Part shown: positions 1 through 6,359 of the stretch, piece by piece
How positions within the stretch are numbered: the first letter of the stretch is position 1
How the letters are laid out: every line of letters begins with the position of its first letter
Virus record (IMG/VR): IMGVR_UViG_2695420514_000020
Coordinates: 1-6,359 of that record
DNA length: 6,359 nucleotides
From: a virus
Taxonomy: Duplodnaviria; Heunggongvirae; Uroviricota; Caudoviricetes
Direction: 5' to 3' (one strand)
Program-made: the position numbers and the translations under genes
The notes under the pieces: generated by a model
The model's database searches: none
Told to the model about the DNA's origin: nothing
What the model saw: only the letters and a program-made list of their open reading frames with translations

Positions 1-225
1 ATGAATCAGAAATACATTCCATCATGCTTGAGAAATCTGCCAAAGCAGAAAGCAAAGCCCCGCAAGCAAGCCATAAAGGACGCTAAGGCAGAGGTTATTG
101 ATCAAGCAATACAATTGCTCAGGGAGGAGTTAAGAAGTGGCAAGCTCGAAGGAATGATGATGCCCTATCAGCGCGGATATCTATCGGCGATTAGTAAGTT
201 GGAAGTATTGAAGAGTGAATTATGA
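1..225 (+). CDS. hypothetical small basic protein (74 aa)
   Basis: ATG at 1, TGA at 223-225. Lys/Arg-rich N-terminal half (KQKAKPRKQAIKDAKAE). The window starts exactly at the start codon, so the upstream RBS or promoter cannot be seen. No family recognised. Confidence 0.45.
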   Translation: MNQKYIPSCLRNLPKQKAKPRKQAIKDAKAEVIDQAIQLLREELRSGKLEGMMMPYQRGYLSAISKLEVLKSEL

Positions 226-280
226 ACTATCTGGAATTTCCGGATGGTTCATTGTTTTGGCAGCAAGCATAGAGGTGAAT

Positions 281-577
281 ATGGAATTCAAAGGTACTAA
301 AGGTAAGTGGGAAATAATGATGGATGGCGATGAGATTAAAATCATCCAGGCAGACTCACTTGAAAATGGCGCAGGCTGGCGTTCGTATATTGCAATCTGT
401 GAGGAAGTTCAACGCATTGAAGATGCCAATCTAATAGCGGCAGCACCTGACCTTCTCGAAGCACTTCAGTTATTACTTAAGCAATCAAAAAATAGAACAA
501 CGACAATATATCCAGAATGGTATGGAGCTGTTAATAAAGGTTTTGCAGCAATCATCAAGGCTCTGGGAGGTGAGTGA
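281..577 (+). CDS. hypothetical phage early protein (98 aa), possibly Ead/Ea22-related
   Basis: ATG at 281 preceded by AGAGG (271-275) with a 5-nt spacer. The track ORF extends in frame to GTG 215, which has no comparable RBS. Stop TGA 575-577 overlaps the next ATG (TGATG). Contains the motif NLIAAAPDLLEAL, which I recall from Ead/Ea22-like lambdoid early proteins (memory only, unverified). Confidence 0.55.
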   Translation: MEFKGTKGKWEIMMDGDEIKIIQADSLENGAGWRSYIAICEEVQRIEDANLIAAAPDLLEALQLLLKQSKNRTTTIYPEWYGAVNKGFAAIIKALGGE

Positions 578-672
578 TGTGCGAGTTTTACGAAGCAGAT
601 ATCAAACGCCCAGAAATGGCAAGTGATGCGACATACGTGATTATTTCGCGGCAAAGGCTATGCAAGCAATGA
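577..672 (+). CDS. small ORF (31 aa); possible 5' part of a frameshifted small gene
   Basis: ATG 577 with a strong SD GGAGG (566-570) and 6-nt spacer, overlapping the upstream stop. The ORF ends at TGA 670-672, while a second frame stays open from 627 to 776. Confidence 0.3.
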   Translation: MCEFYEADIKRPEMASDATYVIISRQRLCKQ

Positions 673-776
673 TTAGCAATCCATCGATTATCGATAATGA
701 TTCTGATGGAGCTGTTAATTATGCAGCAAGCGCTGCATATAAGTTTGCAGACGCAATGCTCAAAGCTCGCGAATAA
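660..776 (+). CDS. small ORF (38 aa); possible 3' part of the same frameshifted gene
   Basis: The frame is open from 627 and the first ATG is at 660, with no good SD (AAGG only 2 nt upstream). Stop TAA 774-776. The translation CDIRDYFAAKAMQAMISNPSIIDNDSDGAVNYAASAAYKFADAMLKARE looks protein-like from before the ATG, which suggests it continues the upstream ORF after a frameshift. Confidence 0.3.
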   Translation: MQAMISNPSIIDNDSDGAVNYAASAAYKFADAMLKARE

Positions 777-779
777 GCA

Positions 780-811
780 CTGTGTATTCATTCCAACGAG
801 TGAATACACGG
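780..811 (+). other. inverted repeat / stem-loop without a U-tract
   Basis: GTGTATTCA (782-790) pairs with TGAATACAC (801-809); the stem extends with C780-G811 and a T781/G810 wobble; 10-nt loop. No T-run follows, so this is not a canonical terminator. It sits in the 185-bp non-coding gap. Confidence 0.4.
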
Positions 812-871
812 AGCAATGTCGCTCGTAACTAAACAGGAGCCGACTTGTTCTGATTATTGGAAATCTTCTTT

Positions 872-896
872 GCCCTCCAGTGTGAGGGCTTTTTTA
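872..896 (+). terminator. rho-independent terminator
   Basis: GC-rich 6-bp stem GCCCTC (872-877) / GAGGGC (884-889), 6-nt loop, followed directly by TTTTTT (890-895). The orientation works only on the + strand. It lies inside the track ORF 857-1132, arguing that ORF is over-extended. Confidence 0.7.
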
Positions 897-961
897 TATG
901 CATACCAATAACGCTTCACTTGAGGCGTTTTCGTTATGCAATCAAACAGAAGGAGCATCCT

Positions 962-1132
962 ATGCAACAGTTCGCTATTGCAGGGGCGGCATCGGTTCGC
1001 CCTTTCAACCCGATTTTATCGGTACAGCATTCACGAAAAAATATTTTAACCGGAGCAGACTTTAAACAACCAAGAATGAAAAGTTTGCTCGAAAAGCTTT
1101 GGGATATTTTGAAACAACAAGGCCGTCCATGA
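962..1132 (+). CDS. CIII-like small regulatory protein (putative FtsH inhibitor, lysogeny control), 56 aa
   Basis: ATG 962 preceded by AGGAG (951-955) with a 6-nt spacer. Product MQQFAIAGAASVRPFNPILSVQHSRKNILTGADFKQPRMKSLLEKLWDILKQQGRP. The N-terminal FAIAG and C-terminal SLLEK...LWDILKQQG resemble lambda CIII (MQYAIAG... ESLLER... KRLIDILNQPG) as I recall it. The position upstream of the recombinase matches the lambda order cIII-kil-gam-bet. Confidence 0.5.
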   Translation: MQQFAIAGAASVRPFNPILSVQHSRKNILTGADFKQPRMKSLLEKLWDILKQQGRP

Positions 1133-1236
1133 GTTTTACAGATAACTGGTCAGACGAAGAATTCATTCGTCAGATGAACAAAATGCTCAATCAGCACAAA
1201 GAACAGGAGAAAGATGATGATTCTGACTCTGAATGA
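1129..1236 (+). CDS. hypothetical small acidic protein (35 aa)
   Basis: ATG 1129 overlaps the CIII-like stop (ATGA). Weak SD AAGG (1119-1122). Product MSFTDNWSDEEFIRQMNKMLNQHKEQEKDDDSDSE; stop TGA 1234-1236. It is below the track length cutoff and overlaps the next gene start by 23 nt. It occupies the kil-like position. Confidence 0.35.
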   Translation: MSFTDNWSDEEFIRQMNKMLNQHKEQEKDDDSDSE

Positions 1237-1525
1237 TAAGCGTGAAATATCGCAAATAATCGCAAGTTTTACTGATGAAGATTACGAACGAATCAACAGT
1301 GAAGTTGATCGTCTCTGCAAACGTTGCGACCCCATAAGCGAAATGCTTCGCTCATATAAACCAGATGAACACACTAAGGACGCTATCGACTGGCTGGAAG
1401 ATGATGACTGTAACTATCAGGAAAAAGCCGCTGAATGGTTCTGGGATGCAATAACCGAAAGAGTTAAGGCTGAATATGCCTTCGCAATATTCAAACGCAG
1501 ACATATTTATGGAGAAGCTGCATGA
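1214..1525 (+). CDS. hypothetical protein (103 aa) immediately upstream of recT
   Basis: Tandem ATGs at 1214 and 1217 follow AGGAGA (1205-1210). Stop TGA 1523-1525 overlaps the recT ATG (ATGA). No family recognised. It occupies the gam-like position. Confidence 0.6.
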   Translation: MMILTLNDKREISQIIASFTDEDYERINSEVDRLCKRCDPISEMLRSYKPDEHTKDAIDWLEDDDCNYQEKAAEWFWDAITERVKAEYAFAIFKRRHIYGEAA

Positions 1526-2424
1526 GCAATATCGTTGAATTCGTTAAACAGCAAGAGCAGTTATTCTGCGGAGCATTGACTGAACAGACGGTGACATGGG
1601 CTAAGGAAAGCCAGTTTGCAATTCAGTATTTCCAGAAAAATGATTACCTGGCTAAAACAGCACTGGCAAATCCAACCAGCGCACAGAACGCCATCATCAA
1701 TGTTGCGGCGATCGGCATCACCTTAAACCCGGCCAGCAAACTGGCTTATCTGGTTCCTCGCGACGGCATGGTGTGCCTTGATATCAGTTACATGGGATTA
1801 CTTCATCTTGCGCAATCGACAGGATCAATTAAGTGGGGGCAATGCAAACTGGTGTACTCAAACGACACCTATGAATCAAATGGCCTTGATTCAGCACCAA
1901 CCCACAAATACAACGCATTTGGTGAGCGAGGCTCTATTGTTGGAGGTTATTGCACGGTTAAAACAGCAGATGGTGACTACCTGACTGAAGAAATGAGTCT
2001 GGCAGAAATTAAAGCTGTGGAAGCAACGAGCAAGGCAAAGAATGGACCGTGGAAAACATTCTGGGAAGAGATGGCGCGTAAAACAATAGTTAAACGCGCC
2101 AGCAAATACTGGCCTAAAGCCCAGCGACTGGATAATGCCATTCACCTTCTTAACGAAGATGAAGGTATGCATCAGGAACCAGTTATGCCGCACAAATCAG
2201 AGGAAGATATCCGCGAAGATGAACGGAAACGCCAGCAGGAAATAATGGATAAAGCACAACTTCTTTGCGATGAAATGGCTCAGGCAGAAAACATGGACGA
2301 TTTGAAGCGATATTTTGCAGAAGCATATCGCCTGACATCTGGAATGAAATTGCAGCAGAACGTACAAGCCATTTACATAGAATGCAAAGCGAAACTGGAG
2401 GTTGCCAGTGAGCAAACTGTATGA
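1522..2424 (+). CDS. recT: RecT-family single-strand annealing recombinase (300 aa)
   Basis: The segment NGPWKTFWEEMARKTIVKRASKYWP closely matches the Rac RecT segment NGPWVTHWEEMAKKTAIRRLFKYLP (from memory). Length and surrounding residues are consistent. SD GGAGAAG (1511-1517). Confidence 0.85.
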   Translation: MSNIVEFVKQQEQLFCGALTEQTVTWAKESQFAIQYFQKNDYLAKTALANPTSAQNAIINVAAIGITLNPASKLAYLVPRDGMVCLDISYMGLLHLAQSTGSIKWGQCKLVYSNDTYESNGLDSAPTHKYNAFGERGSIVGGYCTVKTADGDYLTEEMSLAEIKAVEATSKAKNGPWKTFWEEMARKTIVKRASKYWPKAQRLDNAIHLLNEDEGMHQEPVMPHKSEEDIREDERKRQQEIMDKAQLLCDEMAQAENMDDLKRYFAEAYRLTSGMKLQQNVQAIYIECKAKLEVASEQTV

Positions 2425-2890
2425 AATTGCCAATGAATACGCAAAATTGATGGATTCAGATTTAGAACCAGAGATGATTGCTGACACAATAGAAGGCATG
2501 GAAGGAGAATTTACCGATAAAATAGAGCAACTTCTCGCCATTATTAAAAATGAATCTGGTTATGCTGAACGCCTCAAGGAAGAGGCAAAGTCACTAAATG
2601 AGCGAGCCGTAGTAATTCAAAATAAGATTGACAGCATTATGGCGTATATAGCGTCATCGCTTGAAATGGTTGGCAAGAAAAAGATTCGAGCAGGTATTCA
2701 CCAGGTAACAATCCGCAAACCGTCAGAAACTGTAGAAATCATCGACTCAAGCGCCCTTCCTCCTGAATACGTTGAGTTCGAAACGACAATTAAAGCCGAC
2801 AAACTGGCAATCAAACACCAACTAAAAGCAGGAATAAATATCCCCGGTGCTCAACTCAAAGTTGGGAAACCTTCACTTCTTATCAAATAA
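2408..2890 (+). CDS. Siphovirus Gp157-like protein (about 160 aa), common RecT companion
   Basis: GTG 2408 is 6 nt after GGAGG (2397-2401); the track starts at in-frame TTG 2402. Overlaps the recT 3' end by 17 nt. N-terminal KLYEIANEYAKLMDSD...DTIEGMEGEF followed by a coiled-coil region fits my memory of the Gp157 family (PF05565), which typically sits beside RecT or Erf. Confidence 0.6.
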   Translation: MSKLYEIANEYAKLMDSDLEPEMIADTIEGMEGEFTDKIEQLLAIIKNESGYAERLKEEAKSLNERAVVIQNKIDSIMAYIASSLEMVGKKKIRAGIHQVTIRKPSETVEIIDSSALPPEYVEFETTIKADKLAIKHQLKAGINIPGAQLKVGKPSLLIK

Positions 2891-2901
2891 CGGTATCGCC
2901 T

Positions 2902-3216
2902 ATGAAAAAGACTCCATGGGAGAAATGGGAAGTCGATTTCTTGCGCGAAGTAGCGGCGACAATGCCAGTTGAAGTTATCGCTGAAAAACTGGAAAGGACT
3001 GAAAAAGCAGTTATGGCGAAAGCAACAAGGATTGGCGCTGACATTGTTAGCCGACTTCGTGGAAGACGCTGGACAAGAGCCGAAGTATCACTTTTCGGTA
3101 AGTTCTCCGCAGAAGAAATAGCAATTGCAACCTGCCGCTCAATTTATTCAGTAAGAGCTATGCGATACAAGCTAAAAAAACTCGATGAAGAAAGAGCAGG
3201 CATACGAATAAATTAA
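2902..3216 (+). CDS. putative DNA-binding protein with two tandem Myb/SANT-like HTH repeats (104 aa)
   Basis: ATG 2902, 11 nt after the upstream stop, with no strong SD. Two internal repeats share a W-x(2-3)-E-x(2)-L ... EEIA ... R(T/S)-x(3)-(A)VR pattern: [12 protein letters not shown]...[21 protein letters not shown] and [37 protein letters not shown]. Confidence 0.55.
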
Positions 3217-3232
3217 CAAAGAGGAATTTACC

Positions 3233-3397
3233 ATGAGAGGACTTGCATACAATCCCGGCATTCTTCCGGCAGAAATGATTATTCGCCAACGCGTAAAGCC
3301 AATGCCATCGAGAGAGGAATTGCTTAAGAGAAATTCTTTTCCATCAGTGAATCAAAACAAATATCTGAATGCGATGTTGCGGAGTGGGAAGAAATGA
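3233..3397 (+). CDS. hypothetical small protein (54 aa)
   Basis: ATG 3233 preceded by AAGAGGA (3219-3225) with a 7-nt spacer. Stop TGA 3395-3397 overlaps the next ATG (ATGA). Below the track cutoff. Confidence 0.45.
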
Positions 3398-3906
3398 AAC
3401 AAATGACACTAATTGAGATGGATGGTTTTCTGAAAGGTAAATGCATCCCAAGCGATTTAAAGGTTAACGAAACAAACGCTGAATATCTTGTCCGTAAGTT
3501 CGGTGAACTTGAATCAAAACTGGAAACGGCGTTGCGGGAGTGTCGTTCTGCTGGAATCACGATTGATAACCTTGAGGCTAAATGCACGAAGATGGCTGCT
3601 GAAAATACATCGCTTAAGCAATCTGAGAAGGAATTTAATGACTTTTGTCGTGAGGAGTTTAGCGAATGGGAAGATGATGTTACTGAAACTCCAGCCACCG
3701 ATGCTTTTCTGTCTGAAGTGCGGGCGCAGGGGGTGGATGCTGCTATAGAAGCTGCAAAAAATCTGGTGGCCCAAGAATATGAGTATAAGGATTTCAAAGC
3801 GGCGCAGAGTGATTGCTGTATGCACCCTGGTTCAGACCTGGTAGGGAAGGTTGAAATGACTGAGTGGTTAGTTGACTTTGCTGCCCAGCTTCGCAAAGGA
3901 GAGTGA
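3394..3906 (+). CDS. hypothetical coiled-coil protein (170 aa), possibly Ead/Ea22-like
   Basis: Long + strand ORF with a heptad-like charged helical middle ([44 protein letters not shown]). GGAG 3381-3384 upstream. The antisense ORFs across it are Ser-rich low-complexity shadows. Confidence 0.65.
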
Positions 3907-3907
3907 T

Positions 3908-4465
3908 ATGACCACTATAACCGATAAGAAACAGTATCCAGGCGAGCAATATCTTAATGAGCTGATCACCAACATAGAGTTTGCTGCAAGAGCACCAGTT
4001 GAAGTCGTGAGAGCGATGGCTGCAGAGCTACAGAAGCGGCGCGAAGCTGATAGTGCAGAACCTGTAAGCCAAACTTACAAGTTGCCAGTTAATACACCTT
4101 GCCAAGATGCGCCAGCCCATATCTGGCTGCAAACGGCTGGAGTATGGCCAGAAGATGGCGAGTTAAGCGAATTAACGTGGTGCAGCCACAATCAGCACCA
4201 TGATGACACGCTATATGTTCGAGCTGACCTTGTGAATGGCAACTCTCCGGGAACTCCGGATGGTTGGATAAGCTGTAGTGAGCGAATGCCAGAGGACGGT
4301 CAGCACGTAATTATTTTATGTGATGGCGCATTCGTTCTTTATGCGCAATATCGAGACGGTGAGTTTTTCGATATTGTCCGCAATGGTGATGAATTTTTTG
4401 AAACACAGAGCCGCAATGTAACACACTGGATGCCGCTACCAGAACCGCCGCAGGAGGCAAAATGA
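3908..4465 (+). CDS. DUF551-like domain phage protein (185 aa)
   Basis: ATG 3908 preceded by AAGGAG (3896-3901) with a 6-nt spacer; the track start at 3872 lies inside the upstream gene. The C-terminus DGWISCSERMPEDGQHVIIL...VTHWMPLPEPP matches the DUF551 signature as I recall it. Confidence 0.7.
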   Translation: MTTITDKKQYPGEQYLNELITNIEFAARAPVEVVRAMAAELQKRREADSAEPVSQTYKLPVNTPCQDAPAHIWLQTAGVWPEDGELSELTWCSHNQHHDDTLYVRADLVNGNSPGTPDGWISCSERMPEDGQHVIILCDGAFVLYAQYRDGEFFDIVRNGDEFFETQSRNVTHWMPLPEPPQEAK

Positions 4466-4659
4466 TGGATAAATGCCATGGCATTTTAGGTAAGTTGTTC
4501 GGGCACTCATTCAAGCCGGTGATCGCCAAGAGCGCCGTAAAATTCCCAACACGAATTGAAGGAACGCCGTCATTTGTCAGTAGAACGCTGGATGCCCATC
4601 GGGATGAAGATTATCGTGGCCTTTATTGCAAGCGTTGCGGAAAGGAGGTGAAGCCGTGA
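4462..4659 (+). CDS. small putative zinc-binding protein (65 aa)
   Basis: ATGATG at 4462 follows AGGAGG (4452-4457) and overlaps the upstream stop. N-terminal KCHG and C-terminal YCKRCGKE give a Cys/His...CxxC arrangement. Confidence 0.6.
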   Translation: MMDKCHGILGKLFGHSFKPVIAKSAVKFPTRIEGTPSFVSRTLDAHRDEDYRGLYCKRCGKEVKP

Positions 4660-4772
4660 TTACAGTGCTAGCATGGCATTTAAGTGAAAGCATTTATGGC
4701 TGGATGCTGGCAATTACAGCAATTCAGGATTTGGCAATCACATCGTTTATTTTCAGCCTGTGCAGGAGGTGA
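4656..4772 (+). CDS. small hydrophobic peptide (38 aa), putative membrane micro-protein
   Basis: GTG 4656 is 7 nt after AGGAGG (4643-4648) and overlaps the upstream stop (GTGA). Product MITVLAWHLSESIYGWMLAITAIQDLAITSFIFSLCRR; stop TGA 4770-4772. Not in the track (short). The track ORF 4684-5055 covers the same DNA in another frame. Confidence 0.4.
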   Translation: MITVLAWHLSESIYGWMLAITAIQDLAITSFIFSLCRR

Positions 4773-4776
4773 AGTG

Positions 4777-5055
4777 ATGGACTCCTTCGCGAAATATACG
4801 ATTATTGACTGGATAGCATTCCTTCAGGTTTTGCTCATCTGGTTTTATATGGCTTACAGGAGTGGGCAGTGGATTGTCAGTGTAGCCTGTAGCAAGGGAT
4901 GGCGTTGGTGGAACAGAAAGAATAAAAAAGCACTGGCATTGGATTCGTTTTACGAAGCATTCAATCTTAACAGTCTTCAGCCTGGTTCTGTCGTTGTAGT
5001 CACCACTCAAAGTGGCATGACCATTCAGATTCATAAACCAAAAGAGGAAAAATGA
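4777..5055 (+). CDS. small single-pass membrane protein (92 aa)
   Basis: ATG 4777 is 7 nt after AGGAGG (4764-4769). N-terminal hydrophobic segment YTIIDWIAFLQVLLIWFYMAY, then the basic Trp-rich stretch GWRWWNRKNKK. The track's upstream GTG 4684 start gives an implausible Cys/Trp-rich leader with no SD. Confidence 0.6.
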   Translation: MDSFAKYTIIDWIAFLQVLLIWFYMAYRSGQWIVSVACSKGWRWWNRKNKKALALDSFYEAFNLNSLQPGSVVVVTTQSGMTIQIHKPKEEK

Positions 5056-5141
5056 TGTGGCCTATATGTGTTAATTGCGGACGGATGTGCCTATCTGGAT
5101 GGTGCCGAAAGTGCGACAAATGCACGAAGCAAAGACAATAA
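5052..5141 (+). CDS. Cys-rich micropeptide (29 aa), zinc-ribbon-like
   Basis: ATGATG at 5052 overlaps the upstream stop (ATGA). SD AAGAGGA (5042-5048). Product MMWPICVNCGRMCLSGWCRKCDKCTKQRQ has 6 Cys including CxxC pairs. Stop TAA 5139-5141. Confidence 0.4.
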   Translation: MMWPICVNCGRMCLSGWCRKCDKCTKQRQ

Positions 5142-5174
5142 CAATCCTCGCACTCGCGGGGATTTCTTTTATCT

Positions 5175-5200
5175 GAACTCGCTACGGCGGGTTTTGTTTT
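5175..5200 (+). terminator. possible weak intrinsic terminator / attenuator
   Basis: Stem GAACTCGC (5175-5182) pairs with GCGGGTTT (5187-5194), including G-U wobbles, around the tetraloop TACG. It is followed by TTTTGTTTT. Marginal stability. Confidence 0.3.
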
Positions 5201-5212
5201 ATGGAGATGATT

Positions 5213-5512
5213 ATGACTTGTTCAACATTCAACCCTTTAACGTTACAGAAATACCATCCAGACCCTGAAGATTTATGCTCACTGTGTGGCGGAAATCATG
5301 GTAAAGCCGCCATGATCGAATGTAAGGACAAAATCCACATATGCCTTAATTGCGTTGATGTCCTCGTTGATATCAAAAATGAAAGAGAAGATAAAAAGCG
5401 TAGCGAGGCTATTCGCGCCTTAGATTCATGGATGCGAGATGGGTATAGTGCTGCGCAAATTTATGACTTAGCCATTTCAAAAGGCGAAATACCAGGTGTG
5501 CGAATCGAATAA
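5213..5512 (+). CDS. zinc-ribbon-containing hypothetical protein (99 aa)
   Basis: ATG 5213 is 5 nt after GGAGA (5203-5207); in-frame ATGs at 5201 and 5207 are alternatives. CSLCGG ... HICLNC gives a CxxC-x18-CxxC pattern. Confidence 0.65.
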   Translation: MTCSTFNPLTLQKYHPDPEDLCSLCGGNHGKAAMIECKDKIHICLNCVDVLVDIKNEREDKKRSEAIRALDSWMRDGYSAAQIYDLAISKGEIPGVRIE

Positions 5513-5547
5513 GAAGCGCACTCAAGCATCTTTTGGGGAAATCACAA

Positions 5548-5715
5548 ATGCACTTCCTAGTCACAGGTGAATGGAATGGAGAGCCATTCAACAGAGTTAT
5601 CGAATCGGAGAACATCAACGACTGCTACGACCACTGGATGATATGGGCGCAGATAGCACATGCAGAAGTAACCAATATTCAAATTGAAGAACTGAAAGAA
5701 CACCAAGCCGCCTGA
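5548..5715 (+). CDS. hypothetical small protein (55 aa)
   Basis: ATG 5548 is 7 nt after GGGGAA (5535-5540); the track starts at in-frame TTG 5533. Stop TGA 5713-5715. Confidence 0.5.
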   Translation: MHFLVTGEWNGEPFNRVIESENINDCYDHWMIWAQIAHAEVTNIQIEELKEHQAA

Positions 5716-5728
5716 TTGCGGTTTTTTA
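5705..5728 (+). terminator. weak terminator-like hairpin with T-tract
   Basis: Stem CCGC (5708-5711) / GCGG (5718-5721), extendable by A-U and G-U pairs, with loop CTGATT. It is followed by TTTTTT (5722-5727) and overlaps the stop of the 55-aa gene. Confidence 0.35.
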
Positions 5729-5741
5729 TTGGAGACAAGAA

Positions 5742-6086
5742 ATGTCAGATTTGGCTATGAAGGTTTTGAAATGGCAATCGACTGGCGATGTTGGCATCAG
5801 TAGCGCAACTCTTGCCTCAATCGCATGTGGACTGAAAAAGAATATCTATGGTCATAGCTTCGGTGCTCCACATGACGCAGCAGACTTTCGGCGATGCGTT
5901 GCACTTGTTGAGCAGATTCCAGAAATCAGAGATTCATTCGACAAGGTTGCAAAGCGCGTTCCGGCATTCAAAGGAATCCTCAACGAATGGGATTCCCTCG
6001 TTGCTCTGTTGAAGTCTGAAATGAAGATACACGGAAACAAAGCACCAGAGACTTACAGAAGAATTAGCGAGTTACGCAAGGACTAA
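5742..6086 (+). CDS. hypothetical protein (114 aa)
   Basis: ATG 5742 is 6 nt after GGAGA (5731-5735). Clean single long ORF with stop TAA 6084-6086. No family recognised. Confidence 0.7.
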   Translation: MSDLAMKVLKWQSTGDVGISSATLASIACGLKKNIYGHSFGAPHDAADFRRCVALVEQIPEIRDSFDKVAKRVPAFKGILNEWDSLVALLKSEMKIHGNKAPETYRRISELRKD

Positions 6087-6126
6087 CCACAGCCTCACAC
6101 TCGATGAGGCCTGTACATATCTGATA

Positions 6127-6153
6127 GAGCCGCTATATGGCGGTTTCTTTTTG
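6127..6153 (+). terminator. rho-independent terminator, preceded by a second hairpin at 6092-6110
   Basis: Stem CCGC (6130-6133) / GCGG (6140-6143), extendable with wobble pairs, loop ATAT, followed by TTTCTTTTT. Just upstream is a 6-bp hairpin GCCTCA (6092-6097) / TGAGGC (6105-6110). Confidence 0.5.
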
Positions 6154-6167
6154 CCTGGAGAATTAAG

Positions 6168-6359
6168 ATGAGCGATACTAGCCTGATTCCTGAGAAAGAA
6201 GTGATGAACAAGCTCGGTGTTTCATCACGTCAGACAATCTGGAACTATACCAAACGGCACGGATTTCCGAAGCCAGTCAGAACCCACCCCAAATCATACC
6301 TTCGTGAAGCTGTTGAAGGGTGGATTCTTAACGGTGGCGTTAATCAGAAATGCTCCTGA
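6168..6359 (+). CDS. AlpA/Xis-family HTH DNA-binding protein (63 aa); putative excisionase or integrase activator
   Basis: ATG 6168 is 7 nt after GGAG (6157-6160). Pattern IPEKEVMNKLGVSSRQTIWNYTKRHGFPKPV...EAVEGWI matches the AlpA/Xis-family arrangement (…EV…G.SR.TIY…G.FPKP…W) as I recall it. The window ends at its stop codon. Confidence 0.65.
   Translation: MSDTSLIPEKEVMNKLGVSSRQTIWNYTKRHGFPKPVRTHPKSYLREAVEGWILNGGVNQKCS

Follow-up and report, generated by a model that had tools for sequence, protein, structure and literature searches.

The gene considered here is known as ORF114 in phage 434 and as gene 32 in phage HK022. In the 434 record (M60848), the features follow one another in the order terminator t-L4, ORF55, ORF114, terminator t'-I, xis, int; the order is the same in HK022 (AF069308), where gene 32 bears the note "N15 early protein homolog". 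The same gene, referred to below as ORF114, is present in a 6,359-nucleotide (nt) stretch of a tailed-phage genome (IMG/VR record IMGVR_UViG_2695420514_000020, positions 1–6,359; hereafter, the window), the genes of which are all on the + strand and represent the distal part of a lambdoid early-left operon. It shares with its 434 and HK022 counterparts the length, the leader, the position between ORF55 and xis and a near-identical protein. At the same time, the right-hand neighbour of the cassette in the window is an AlpA-type xis module with a terminator of its own, not the lambda-type xis with t'-I and the CII site, and the left hairpin carries a weakening point change. The feature as such is, then, already on record (434 ORF114, HK022 gene 32, with a terminator annotated before xis in 434), but a function was never assigned to it.

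Two further groups of known elements are relevant here. In the lambda pL operon, RNA polymerase modified by N does not stop at the terminators, and in lambda and HK022 the N-modified or put-modified polymerase passes such sites. Like these terminators (t-L4 and t'-I, as annotated in 434), the sites flanking ORF114 feature a GC-rich hairpin followed by a T tract, are intergenic and lie just before xis; unlike them, they are predicted from sequence, the left copy is weak, and its equivalent in P22 ends an antisense RNA. The second group comprises the "ea", or b-region, genes (lambda ea8.5, ea22 and ORF55; P22 eaC and eaA), with which ORF114 has in common the operon, dispensability and mosaic behaviour; P22 eaC occupies exactly the slot of ORF114. 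Still, the ORF114 protein has no sequence relationship to the products of these genes, and its family is far more widespread.

The explanation we favour, with a probability of roughly 0.6, is that the ORF114 region represents an optional, promoter-less one-gene cassette in the last early-left (pL-type) slot before xis, the gene being expressed as a delayed-early one, the hairpins on its sides serving as joints and the product acting as a binding protein. The features on which the argument is built are as follows (aa, amino acids):

5742–6086, + strand: ORF114, 114 aa, ATG start, matching PHROG 1229 (E = 1.9e-51 over residues 1–114)
5731–5735, + strand: Shine–Dalgarno motif GGAGA, 6 nt before the ORF114 ATG, read from the sequence
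5725–6120, + strand: the ORF114 mosaic module, delimited by homology breakpoints in other phages
5705–5724 plus T6 at 5722–5727, + strand: left terminator-like hairpin of 7 pairs, 4 of them GC, from a pattern scan and folding
6093–6113, + strand: hairpin 1, GCCTCA / 7-nt loop / TGAGGC, lacking a T tract, found by folding
6127–6146, with a TTTCTTTTT tract to 6152, + strand: hairpin 2, 8 pairs, terminator-like
5706–5731 and 6128–6153, + strand: the two terminators as imperfect direct repeats of 26 nt, 77% identical and with a spacing of 422 nt
5548–5715, + strand: ORF55, the upstream neighbour, phrog_676 (E = 4e-37)
6168–6359, + strand: AlpA-type xis-like gene, 63 aa, phrog_66 (E = 1.8e-8), preceded by GGAGA at 6157–6161

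The gene, its own Shine–Dalgarno motif and the flanking hairpins were all found where the original prediction, made from the letters of the sequence without database searches, had placed them. Comparison with other lambdoid phages, drawn from junction alignments and from the spread of megablast matches, revealed the following arrangements of this segment:

ORF55 with its hairpin, ORF114, AlpA-type xis: the window, Stx2a_WGPS6, Stx2_16002, E212
ORF55 with its hairpin, ORF114, lambda-type xis: 434, HK022, mEp043, mEp213, Gally
A different double terminator (the pair found at 5143–5194 of the window), ORF114, AlpA-type xis: mEp234, WGPS8, 1717, 2851
ORF55 with its hairpin running straight to AlpA-type xis: HK140, ECO26.1
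ORF55 with its hairpin running straight to lambda-type xis: lambda and relatives
The hairpin running straight to a third type of xis: Min27 and 933W-like phages

The breakpoints of homology are confined to narrow intervals. On the left, the breakpoint lies at ~5724–5731, within the T tract of the left hairpin, and in some E. coli genomes the match to the window ends at 5731, i.e., at the same point. On the right, it is located at ~6118–6122, just past hairpin 1, where the homology of HK022 and Gally ends. In P22, the slot is filled by eaC, which has the hairpin and the ribosome site in common with ORF114, as well as the first codons (ATGTCAG); the leader TTATTGGAGACAA(G/T)AAATGTCAG precedes both genes. 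Partial forms are documented as well: in HK97 and HK544, nothing but the final ~50 nt of ORF114 and hairpin 1 remains, 5' of xis, and PA28, phi315, Stx2-86 and P27 retain only codons 1–56 (window 5742–5910). The HK97 remnant (1501–1579 of the extracted locus, corresponding to 6038–6118 of the window) looks like a deletion scar. The truncated form has a PHROG of its own (8038), and in PA28 (2697–3508 of the extracted locus) an adenine DNA methyltransferase is encoded in the segment after the remnant.

Overall, the slot before xis is variable, as the original prediction had supposed: lambda, HK140 and HK97 lack ORF114, P22 has eaC in its place, and several Stx phages carry a truncated version. 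Comparative genomics likewise bears out that the gene is not core. It is an optional single-gene cassette, its nucleotide module (5725–6120) being detected in 956 of 5,426 complete E. coli genomes (17.6%), in as many as four copies in a single genome. Judging by these alignments, ORF114 is a true optional cassette, and its joints fall in the two hairpins.

The left hairpin is intimately linked with the upstream gene, since the last codons of ORF55 form its left arm and the TGA stop (5713–5715) resides in its loop. Its folding energy is -9 kcal/mol (z-score, z, of -1.2), and that of the right terminator, hairpin 2, is -10.5 kcal/mol (z -0.9). The hairpin energies alone do not lift the flanking sites above chance; conservation does. 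The left hairpin is common to lambda, 434, HK022, HK140, P22 and the Min27/933W-like Stx phages, and the consensus of these copies folds more stably (-13.4 kcal/mol, z -2.65). The window carries a weakened variant of this consensus with one G-to-T change in the 3' arm; the hairpin of 434 is also weakened by a point change (-7.4 kcal/mol). The counterpart of 5705–5724 is annotated as a terminator in the HK140 record, and other annotated terminators precede xis in HK97 and the ORF114 homologue in Salmonella phage g341c. Both 5705–5727 and 6127–6152 display the signature of predicted intrinsic terminators: they are intergenic, lie on the transcribed strand and combine a GC-rich stem-loop with a T tract directly after it. 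In the P22 record (1538–2060 of the extracted locus), the annotation assigns the equivalent hairpin to the other strand, where it terminates the antisense aI RNA, so the hairpin may act in both directions. The aI RNA starts at a putative C1-activated promoter inside eaC. Viewed across these genomes, the left hairpin is a conserved mosaic joint preceding xis or the cargo of the slot in many lambdoid phages.

On the right-hand side, the two hairpins belong to different modules. Hairpin 1 is the last segment common to 434, HK022 and HK97 and is kept in the HK97 scar; it is a part of the ORF114 cassette. In HK140, which lacks ORF114, the stem-loop of the ORF55 hairpin runs directly into TTTCTTTTTGCCTGGAGAATTAAGATG, the exact right-hand tail of the window. 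By this tail and the breakpoint after hairpin 1, the right T-tract terminator belongs to the AlpA-type xis module and not to ORF114. At the position of hairpin 2, between ORF114 and xis, 434 and HK022 possess a different hairpin, t'-I. In lambda, the ORF55 stem-loop is followed by the CTTGCGTGTAATTGC leader, located after t'-I in 434 and HK022; this leader holds the TTGC-N6-TTGC site of the CII-dependent promoter pI. Hence, the gene can be called insulated, as proposed originally, in so far as there are hairpins on both sides of it, but the right T-tract terminator travels with the xis module and not with the gene.

The resemblance of the two terminators is the basis for the suggestion that they also serve as joints of the cassette. 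Ten nucleotides of the consensus left hairpin (ATGGCGGTTT) match the right copy of the repeat exactly. The 26-nt repeat is proposed to be the crossover site for the gain and loss of the cassette: recombination between the look-alike hairpins would insert or remove it, giving rise to the empty sites observed in other phages.

The mode of expression of ORF114 can be approached from its surroundings. A scan for consensus-like sigma-70 sites, which leaves activator-dependent promoters outside its reach, found none in 5500–6359 on either strand. The stop of ORF55 and the ATG of ORF114 are only 26 nt apart, and this space is taken up by the hairpin's 3' arm, its T tract and the ribosome site. ORF114 runs in the same direction as the early-left operon and follows a terminator-like hairpin. 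The lack of a promoter together with the position behind terminator-like hairpins argues for expression only via antiterminated early transcription. From this arrangement, ORF114 is most likely a delayed-early gene requiring antitermination. The hairpins would operate mainly as terminators keeping unmodified transcription out of xis, and the gene would be expressed only when antiterminated early transcription reads through them, during infection or induction and not in the repressed prophage. A gene lacking a promoter, embedded in the operon and followed by a terminator of the xis module is not expected to be expressed from the prophage. The original prediction was stated to fail if the gene proved core in all relatives and co-transcribed only with the lytic early operon; the gene is optional among relatives, but its transcription most likely occurs only as part of the early operon.

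A similar layout recurs in distant phages. In Mannheimia phage 1152AP2, an annotated terminator, the homologue, another annotated terminator, a small xis-like gene and an integrase gene follow one another; the homologue is only 33% identical in protein, and across the upstream junction the nucleotide sequences do not resemble each other. Salmonella phages SPN9CC and g341c also carry the homologue in last or near-last place before int.

The protein itself is widespread and conserved. According to tblastn searches of GenBank phages, it is 100% identical to a hypothetical protein of phage Gally, 99% identical to those encoded by phages 2851 and mEp043, and 96.5% identical to the product of the coding sequence named ORF114 in the 434 record; collectively, HK022 gene 32, the mEp234 and Stx phage genes and 434 ORF114 are 96.5–100% identical to it. 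The identity declines to 93% in Salmonella phage g341c, to 62% in P22-like Salmonella phages (this form is present in >1,000 Salmonella contigs) and to 31–50% in Yersinia phage PY54, many Vibrio phages, Klebsiella phage Carvaje and phages of Mannheimia, Aeromonas and Arthrobacter. An exhaustive HMMER search retrieved 1,901 representatives of 50%-identity clusters at E <= 1e-3, including 192 at E <= 1e-10. Pairwise ratios of nonsynonymous to synonymous substitution rates (dN/dS) among six ORF114 alleles, 0.03–0.19, point to purifying selection. Protein-database searches and a cluster look-up returned only the names "hypothetical protein" and "Prophage protein", and a literature search on ORF114, tL4, phrog_1229 and lambdoid anti-defence found nothing relevant.

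In an alignment of 54 family members (30–98% identity to the window protein), residues G18, S20, P43, D45, D48, R51, C52 and W83 are invariant, and W11, S21, G30, L55 and P60 are nearly so. The window protein carries W11, G18, S20, S21, G30, P43, D45, D48, R51, C52 and W83, as a member of the family should. The structure prediction that had been suggested as a check along with the original prediction yielded a confident seven-helix model (AlphaFold2 on the 54-sequence alignment; predicted local distance difference test score 96, predicted template modelling score 0.89) without a convincing match: comparison of the model with solved structures revealed no significant relative and no DNA-binding fold. 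Pfam, NCBIfam and PADLOC scans and sequence and profile searches of the PDB gave no convincing match either, so the product remains unrecognised by annotated families, as noted originally, and matches only PHROG 1229, a family without an assigned function. A lenient Pfam scan of all 54 members produced scattered noise, with <=3 members per Pfam family, and was disregarded.

The invariant polar residues cluster at the N-termini of predicted helices 2 and 3 (G18-x-S20-S21 and P43-x-D45-x-x-D48, then R51-C52). Such capping-box-like patterns tilt the balance toward a structural role of these residues and hence toward binding rather than catalysis. The compact seven-helix protein may thus bind a host or phage component during early lytic development and not operate as an enzyme, which is the weakest step of the proposed scheme.

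Several considerations weigh against the explanation preferred here. The window lacks the operon promoter, the N gene and a nut site, and the terminator activity and antitermination dependence are deduced from nucleotide sequence only. The left hairpin of the window, weakened as it is (-9 kcal/mol, z -1.2), may terminate poorly. The promoter scan misses activator-dependent promoters such as the CII-dependent pI before the lambda-type xis. The notion of a binder and not an enzyme is based on the positions of invariant residues relative to predicted helices, and a ligand-binding or catalytic site could just as well be made up of the invariant Ser-Ser, Asp, Asp, Arg and Cys.

Among the alternatives, an anti-defence function is a possible, if speculative, one. 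According to it, ORF114 neutralises a bacterial immune system early in infection, e.g., a restriction or a tRNA-targeting system. This would be in line with an optional gene in a hypervariable early region and with certain settings of its relatives. The family is represented in phages of Proteobacteria and Actinobacteria (Vibrio, Aeromonas, Mannheimia, Arthrobacter, Clavibacter) and in Pseudomonas megaplasmids. In PY54 and Vibrio phage K250, homologues reside in early regions that contain Lar-like restriction-alleviation genes, and the PY54 early region also harbors DNA methyltransferase and DinI genes. Homologues with 26–34% identity are carried by 68 Pseudomonas plasmid records (those listed are 250–910 kb in size), and in the megaplasmids DNA methyltransferase genes follow the homologue. 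In pA681-IMP (5399–11627 of the extracted locus), the homologue lies between a divergent pair comprising a helix-turn-helix (HTH) gene and an integrase gene, on one side, and two DNA methyltransferase genes with a DUF6685 gene, on the other. DNA methyltransferases also occur among the neighbours in viral loci, and a single fusion of the domain to a tRNA nucleotidyltransferase is known from a metagenome.

Still, a number of observations speak against an anti-defence role. No sequence or fold similarity to defence or anti-defence families, or to any solved structure, was detected with PADLOC, PDB and fold searches, a set with no anti-defence library among them. The charge is not conserved: the isoelectric points of the family span 4.6–9.6, so there is no conserved charge pattern of a DNA mimic or a nucleic-acid-binding protein, and the DNA-mimic option was rejected. 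The range of the family, spanning phages of two phyla and megaplasmids, is broader than that of most single-system inhibitors. No conserved neighbour gene was found in 62 non-redundant IMG/VR loci, the largest neighbour cluster (7 loci) reflecting the synteny of related phages. The tRNA nucleotidyltransferase fusion was the only informative one among 41 longer homologues scanned; it is a 558-aa protein with a complete tRNA nucleotidyltransferase (PolyA_pol, RNA-binding and HD domains) and a C-terminal ORF114-family domain. Coming from a single 1.9-kb contig (fusion at 37–1713), it was treated as anecdotal. Another metagenomic protein carries two tandem ORF114-family domains. Collectively, these contexts are compatible with an accessory role in counter-defence or DNA metabolism but do not establish one.

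That the protein is a small enzyme or a ligand binder operating on nucleotides or tRNA, with the invariant Ser-Ser, Asp, Asp, Arg and Cys making up its active or binding site, is unlikely. The polar residues are, indeed, invariant across 54 diverse members, but they occur at predicted helix N-termini in a capping-box-like manner, and neither fold nor profile searches linked the protein to an enzyme family. When 150 flanking proteins were scanned against PHROG, recombination-associated exonuclease, deoxynucleoside monophosphate phosphatase and phosphohydrolase, DNA methyltransferase and nucleoside triphosphate pyrophosphohydrolase functions were recognised; the phosphatase, pyrophosphohydrolase and exonuclease genes could be taken as a hint at nucleotide metabolism, but such neighbours are simply typical of the early region. 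Apart from the tRNA nucleotidyltransferase fusion, E. coli chimeras with a dATP/dGTP pyrophosphohydrolase domain might favour an enzyme, but they are near-identical in sequence and look like products of recombination or gene calling.

The original prediction had described the gene as moron-like. Morons, as reportedly defined by Hendrix and colleagues, are extra transcription units such as lambda bor and lom; the HK022 record annotates cor as a moron gene product. In common with lambdoid morons, ORF114 is an extra gene at a fixed position, present or absent in otherwise similar genomes (absent from lambda, HK140 and HK97; present in 434, HK022, mEp234 and WGPS6), with flanking terminator-like hairpins and joints at its boundaries, and it is highly prevalent among prophages of E. 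coli and Salmonella. However, it is distinctly unlikely to be a true moron or lysogenic-conversion gene, one that the repressed prophage transcribes independently to the benefit of the lysogen. In contrast to morons, ORF114 is embedded in the early operon, with which it shares the strand and tight spacing, and no promoter was found for it by the sigma-70-like scan of 5500–6359, the 26-nt leader being taken up by the terminator and the ribosome site. Its composition shows no anomaly (GC 45.8% and, at third codon positions, 45.2%, vs. 44.1% GC for the window) and is on par with that of the neighbouring genes. A promoter of its own and a foreign composition are two properties that define a moron. 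The cassette's own downstream hairpin (6093–6113) lacks a T tract, and the T-tract terminator belongs to the neighbouring module. About 90% of 69 viral loci have no integrase gene within 4 kb, and PY54, Carvaje and Vibrio phages show none within 3 kb of the homologue. The view of ORF114 as an autonomous, prophage-expressed gene was not borne out on these grounds; what survives of the accessory-gene claim is the accessory cassette in a variable slot, not the self-expressed moron.

The least probable option is that ORF114 is an accessory factor of site-specific recombination modulating Xis or Int: this would explain its place beside xis, its last or near-last position before xis/int in five modules (lambda-type, AlpA/2851-type, SPN9CC, g341c/HK620-type and Mannheimia) and its adjacency to an HTH gene and an integrase gene in Pseudomonas megaplasmids, but the same xis/int modules serve lambda, HK140 and HK97, which lack it, a DNA-binding fold was not detected, the homologue of PY54 (a linear-plasmid prophage) has no integrase gene within 3 kb, and an integrase gene within 4 kb, always downstream on the same strand, is present in only 7 of 69 diverse viral loci, so a general link between ORF114 and integrase was rejected.

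Returning to the window as a whole, the remaining annotated features upstream of ORF55 are the following:

1522–2424, + strand: RecT gene
2402–2890, + strand: gene for a Gp157 / Mu Gam-like protein
Between the Gp157-like gene and ORF55, + strand: gene for a DUF551 protein, then several small open reading frames (ORFs)
5143–5194, + strand: strong double terminator, the strongest pair in the window (-24.6 kcal/mol, z -5.2)
5201–5512: gene for a 103-aa protein, phrog_3680, a family without an assigned function

The 5201–5512 product bears a weak, below-threshold resemblance to the ClpX C4-type zinc finger. By alignment with lambda, 434 and HK022, the counterparts of ORF55 are lambda lambdap35, 434 ORF55 and HK022 gene 33. 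The Pfam AlpA match of the xis-like gene falls under the curated cut-off; in relatives, a convergent integrase gene comes after the xis-like gene (according to the WGPS6, mEp234 and HK140 annotations).

The pair at 5143–5194 is also located directly 5' of ORF114 in mEp234 and Stx2a_WGPS8, forming an alternative left joint, and may therefore represent a second recurrent mosaic joint. Together with the TTTTATGGAGA leader (5190–5200), it heads different genes, i.e., the 5201–5512 gene in the window and ORF114 in mEp234 and WGPS8; the TATGGAGA leader is likewise found before ORF55 in lambda and HK022. A further intergenic pair of terminator-like hairpins is present at 872–929 (-21 kcal/mol, z -3.3) and supports the picture of an operon punctuated by terminators. 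In total, the window contains 11 terminator-like sites, vs. 6.3 +/- 2.5 in shuffled sequences, and an Rfam scan of its whole length at E <= 1 returned zero RNA families. The short overlapping ORFs at 574–672 and 660–776 are suggestive of a single small gene disrupted by a 1-nt deletion: phage Sf101 is 98.3% identical to these 241 nt, spread over 242 nt. The intact window is absent from the 5,426 complete E. coli genomes, the best place covering 65% of it; its combination of genes is, therefore, a mosaic not represented in that collection.

As a genome feature, ORF114 is ordinary and behaves like other dispensable early-left genes of lambdoid phages. The locus, at the same time, is an unusually clean nucleotide-level example of lambdoid mosaicism, with two left and two right contexts in combination, empty sites, scars and truncations, and with crossover points located in two terminators that resemble each other. 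The protein is abundant (about one in six complete E. coli genomes), confidently folded according to prediction and maintained by purifying selection, and it has neither an annotation nor a convincing structural relative; its gene is carried by the genetically tractable phages 434, HK022 and mEp234. A more far-reaching and rather doubtful proposal is that ORF114 is the founding member of a very large family with a fold unseen among solved structures, acting in counter-defence or host takeover (e.g., in restriction evasion or tRNA repair). If true, such a role would explain why ORF114 is optional, made early and often encoded beside DNA methyltransferase and restriction-alleviation genes.

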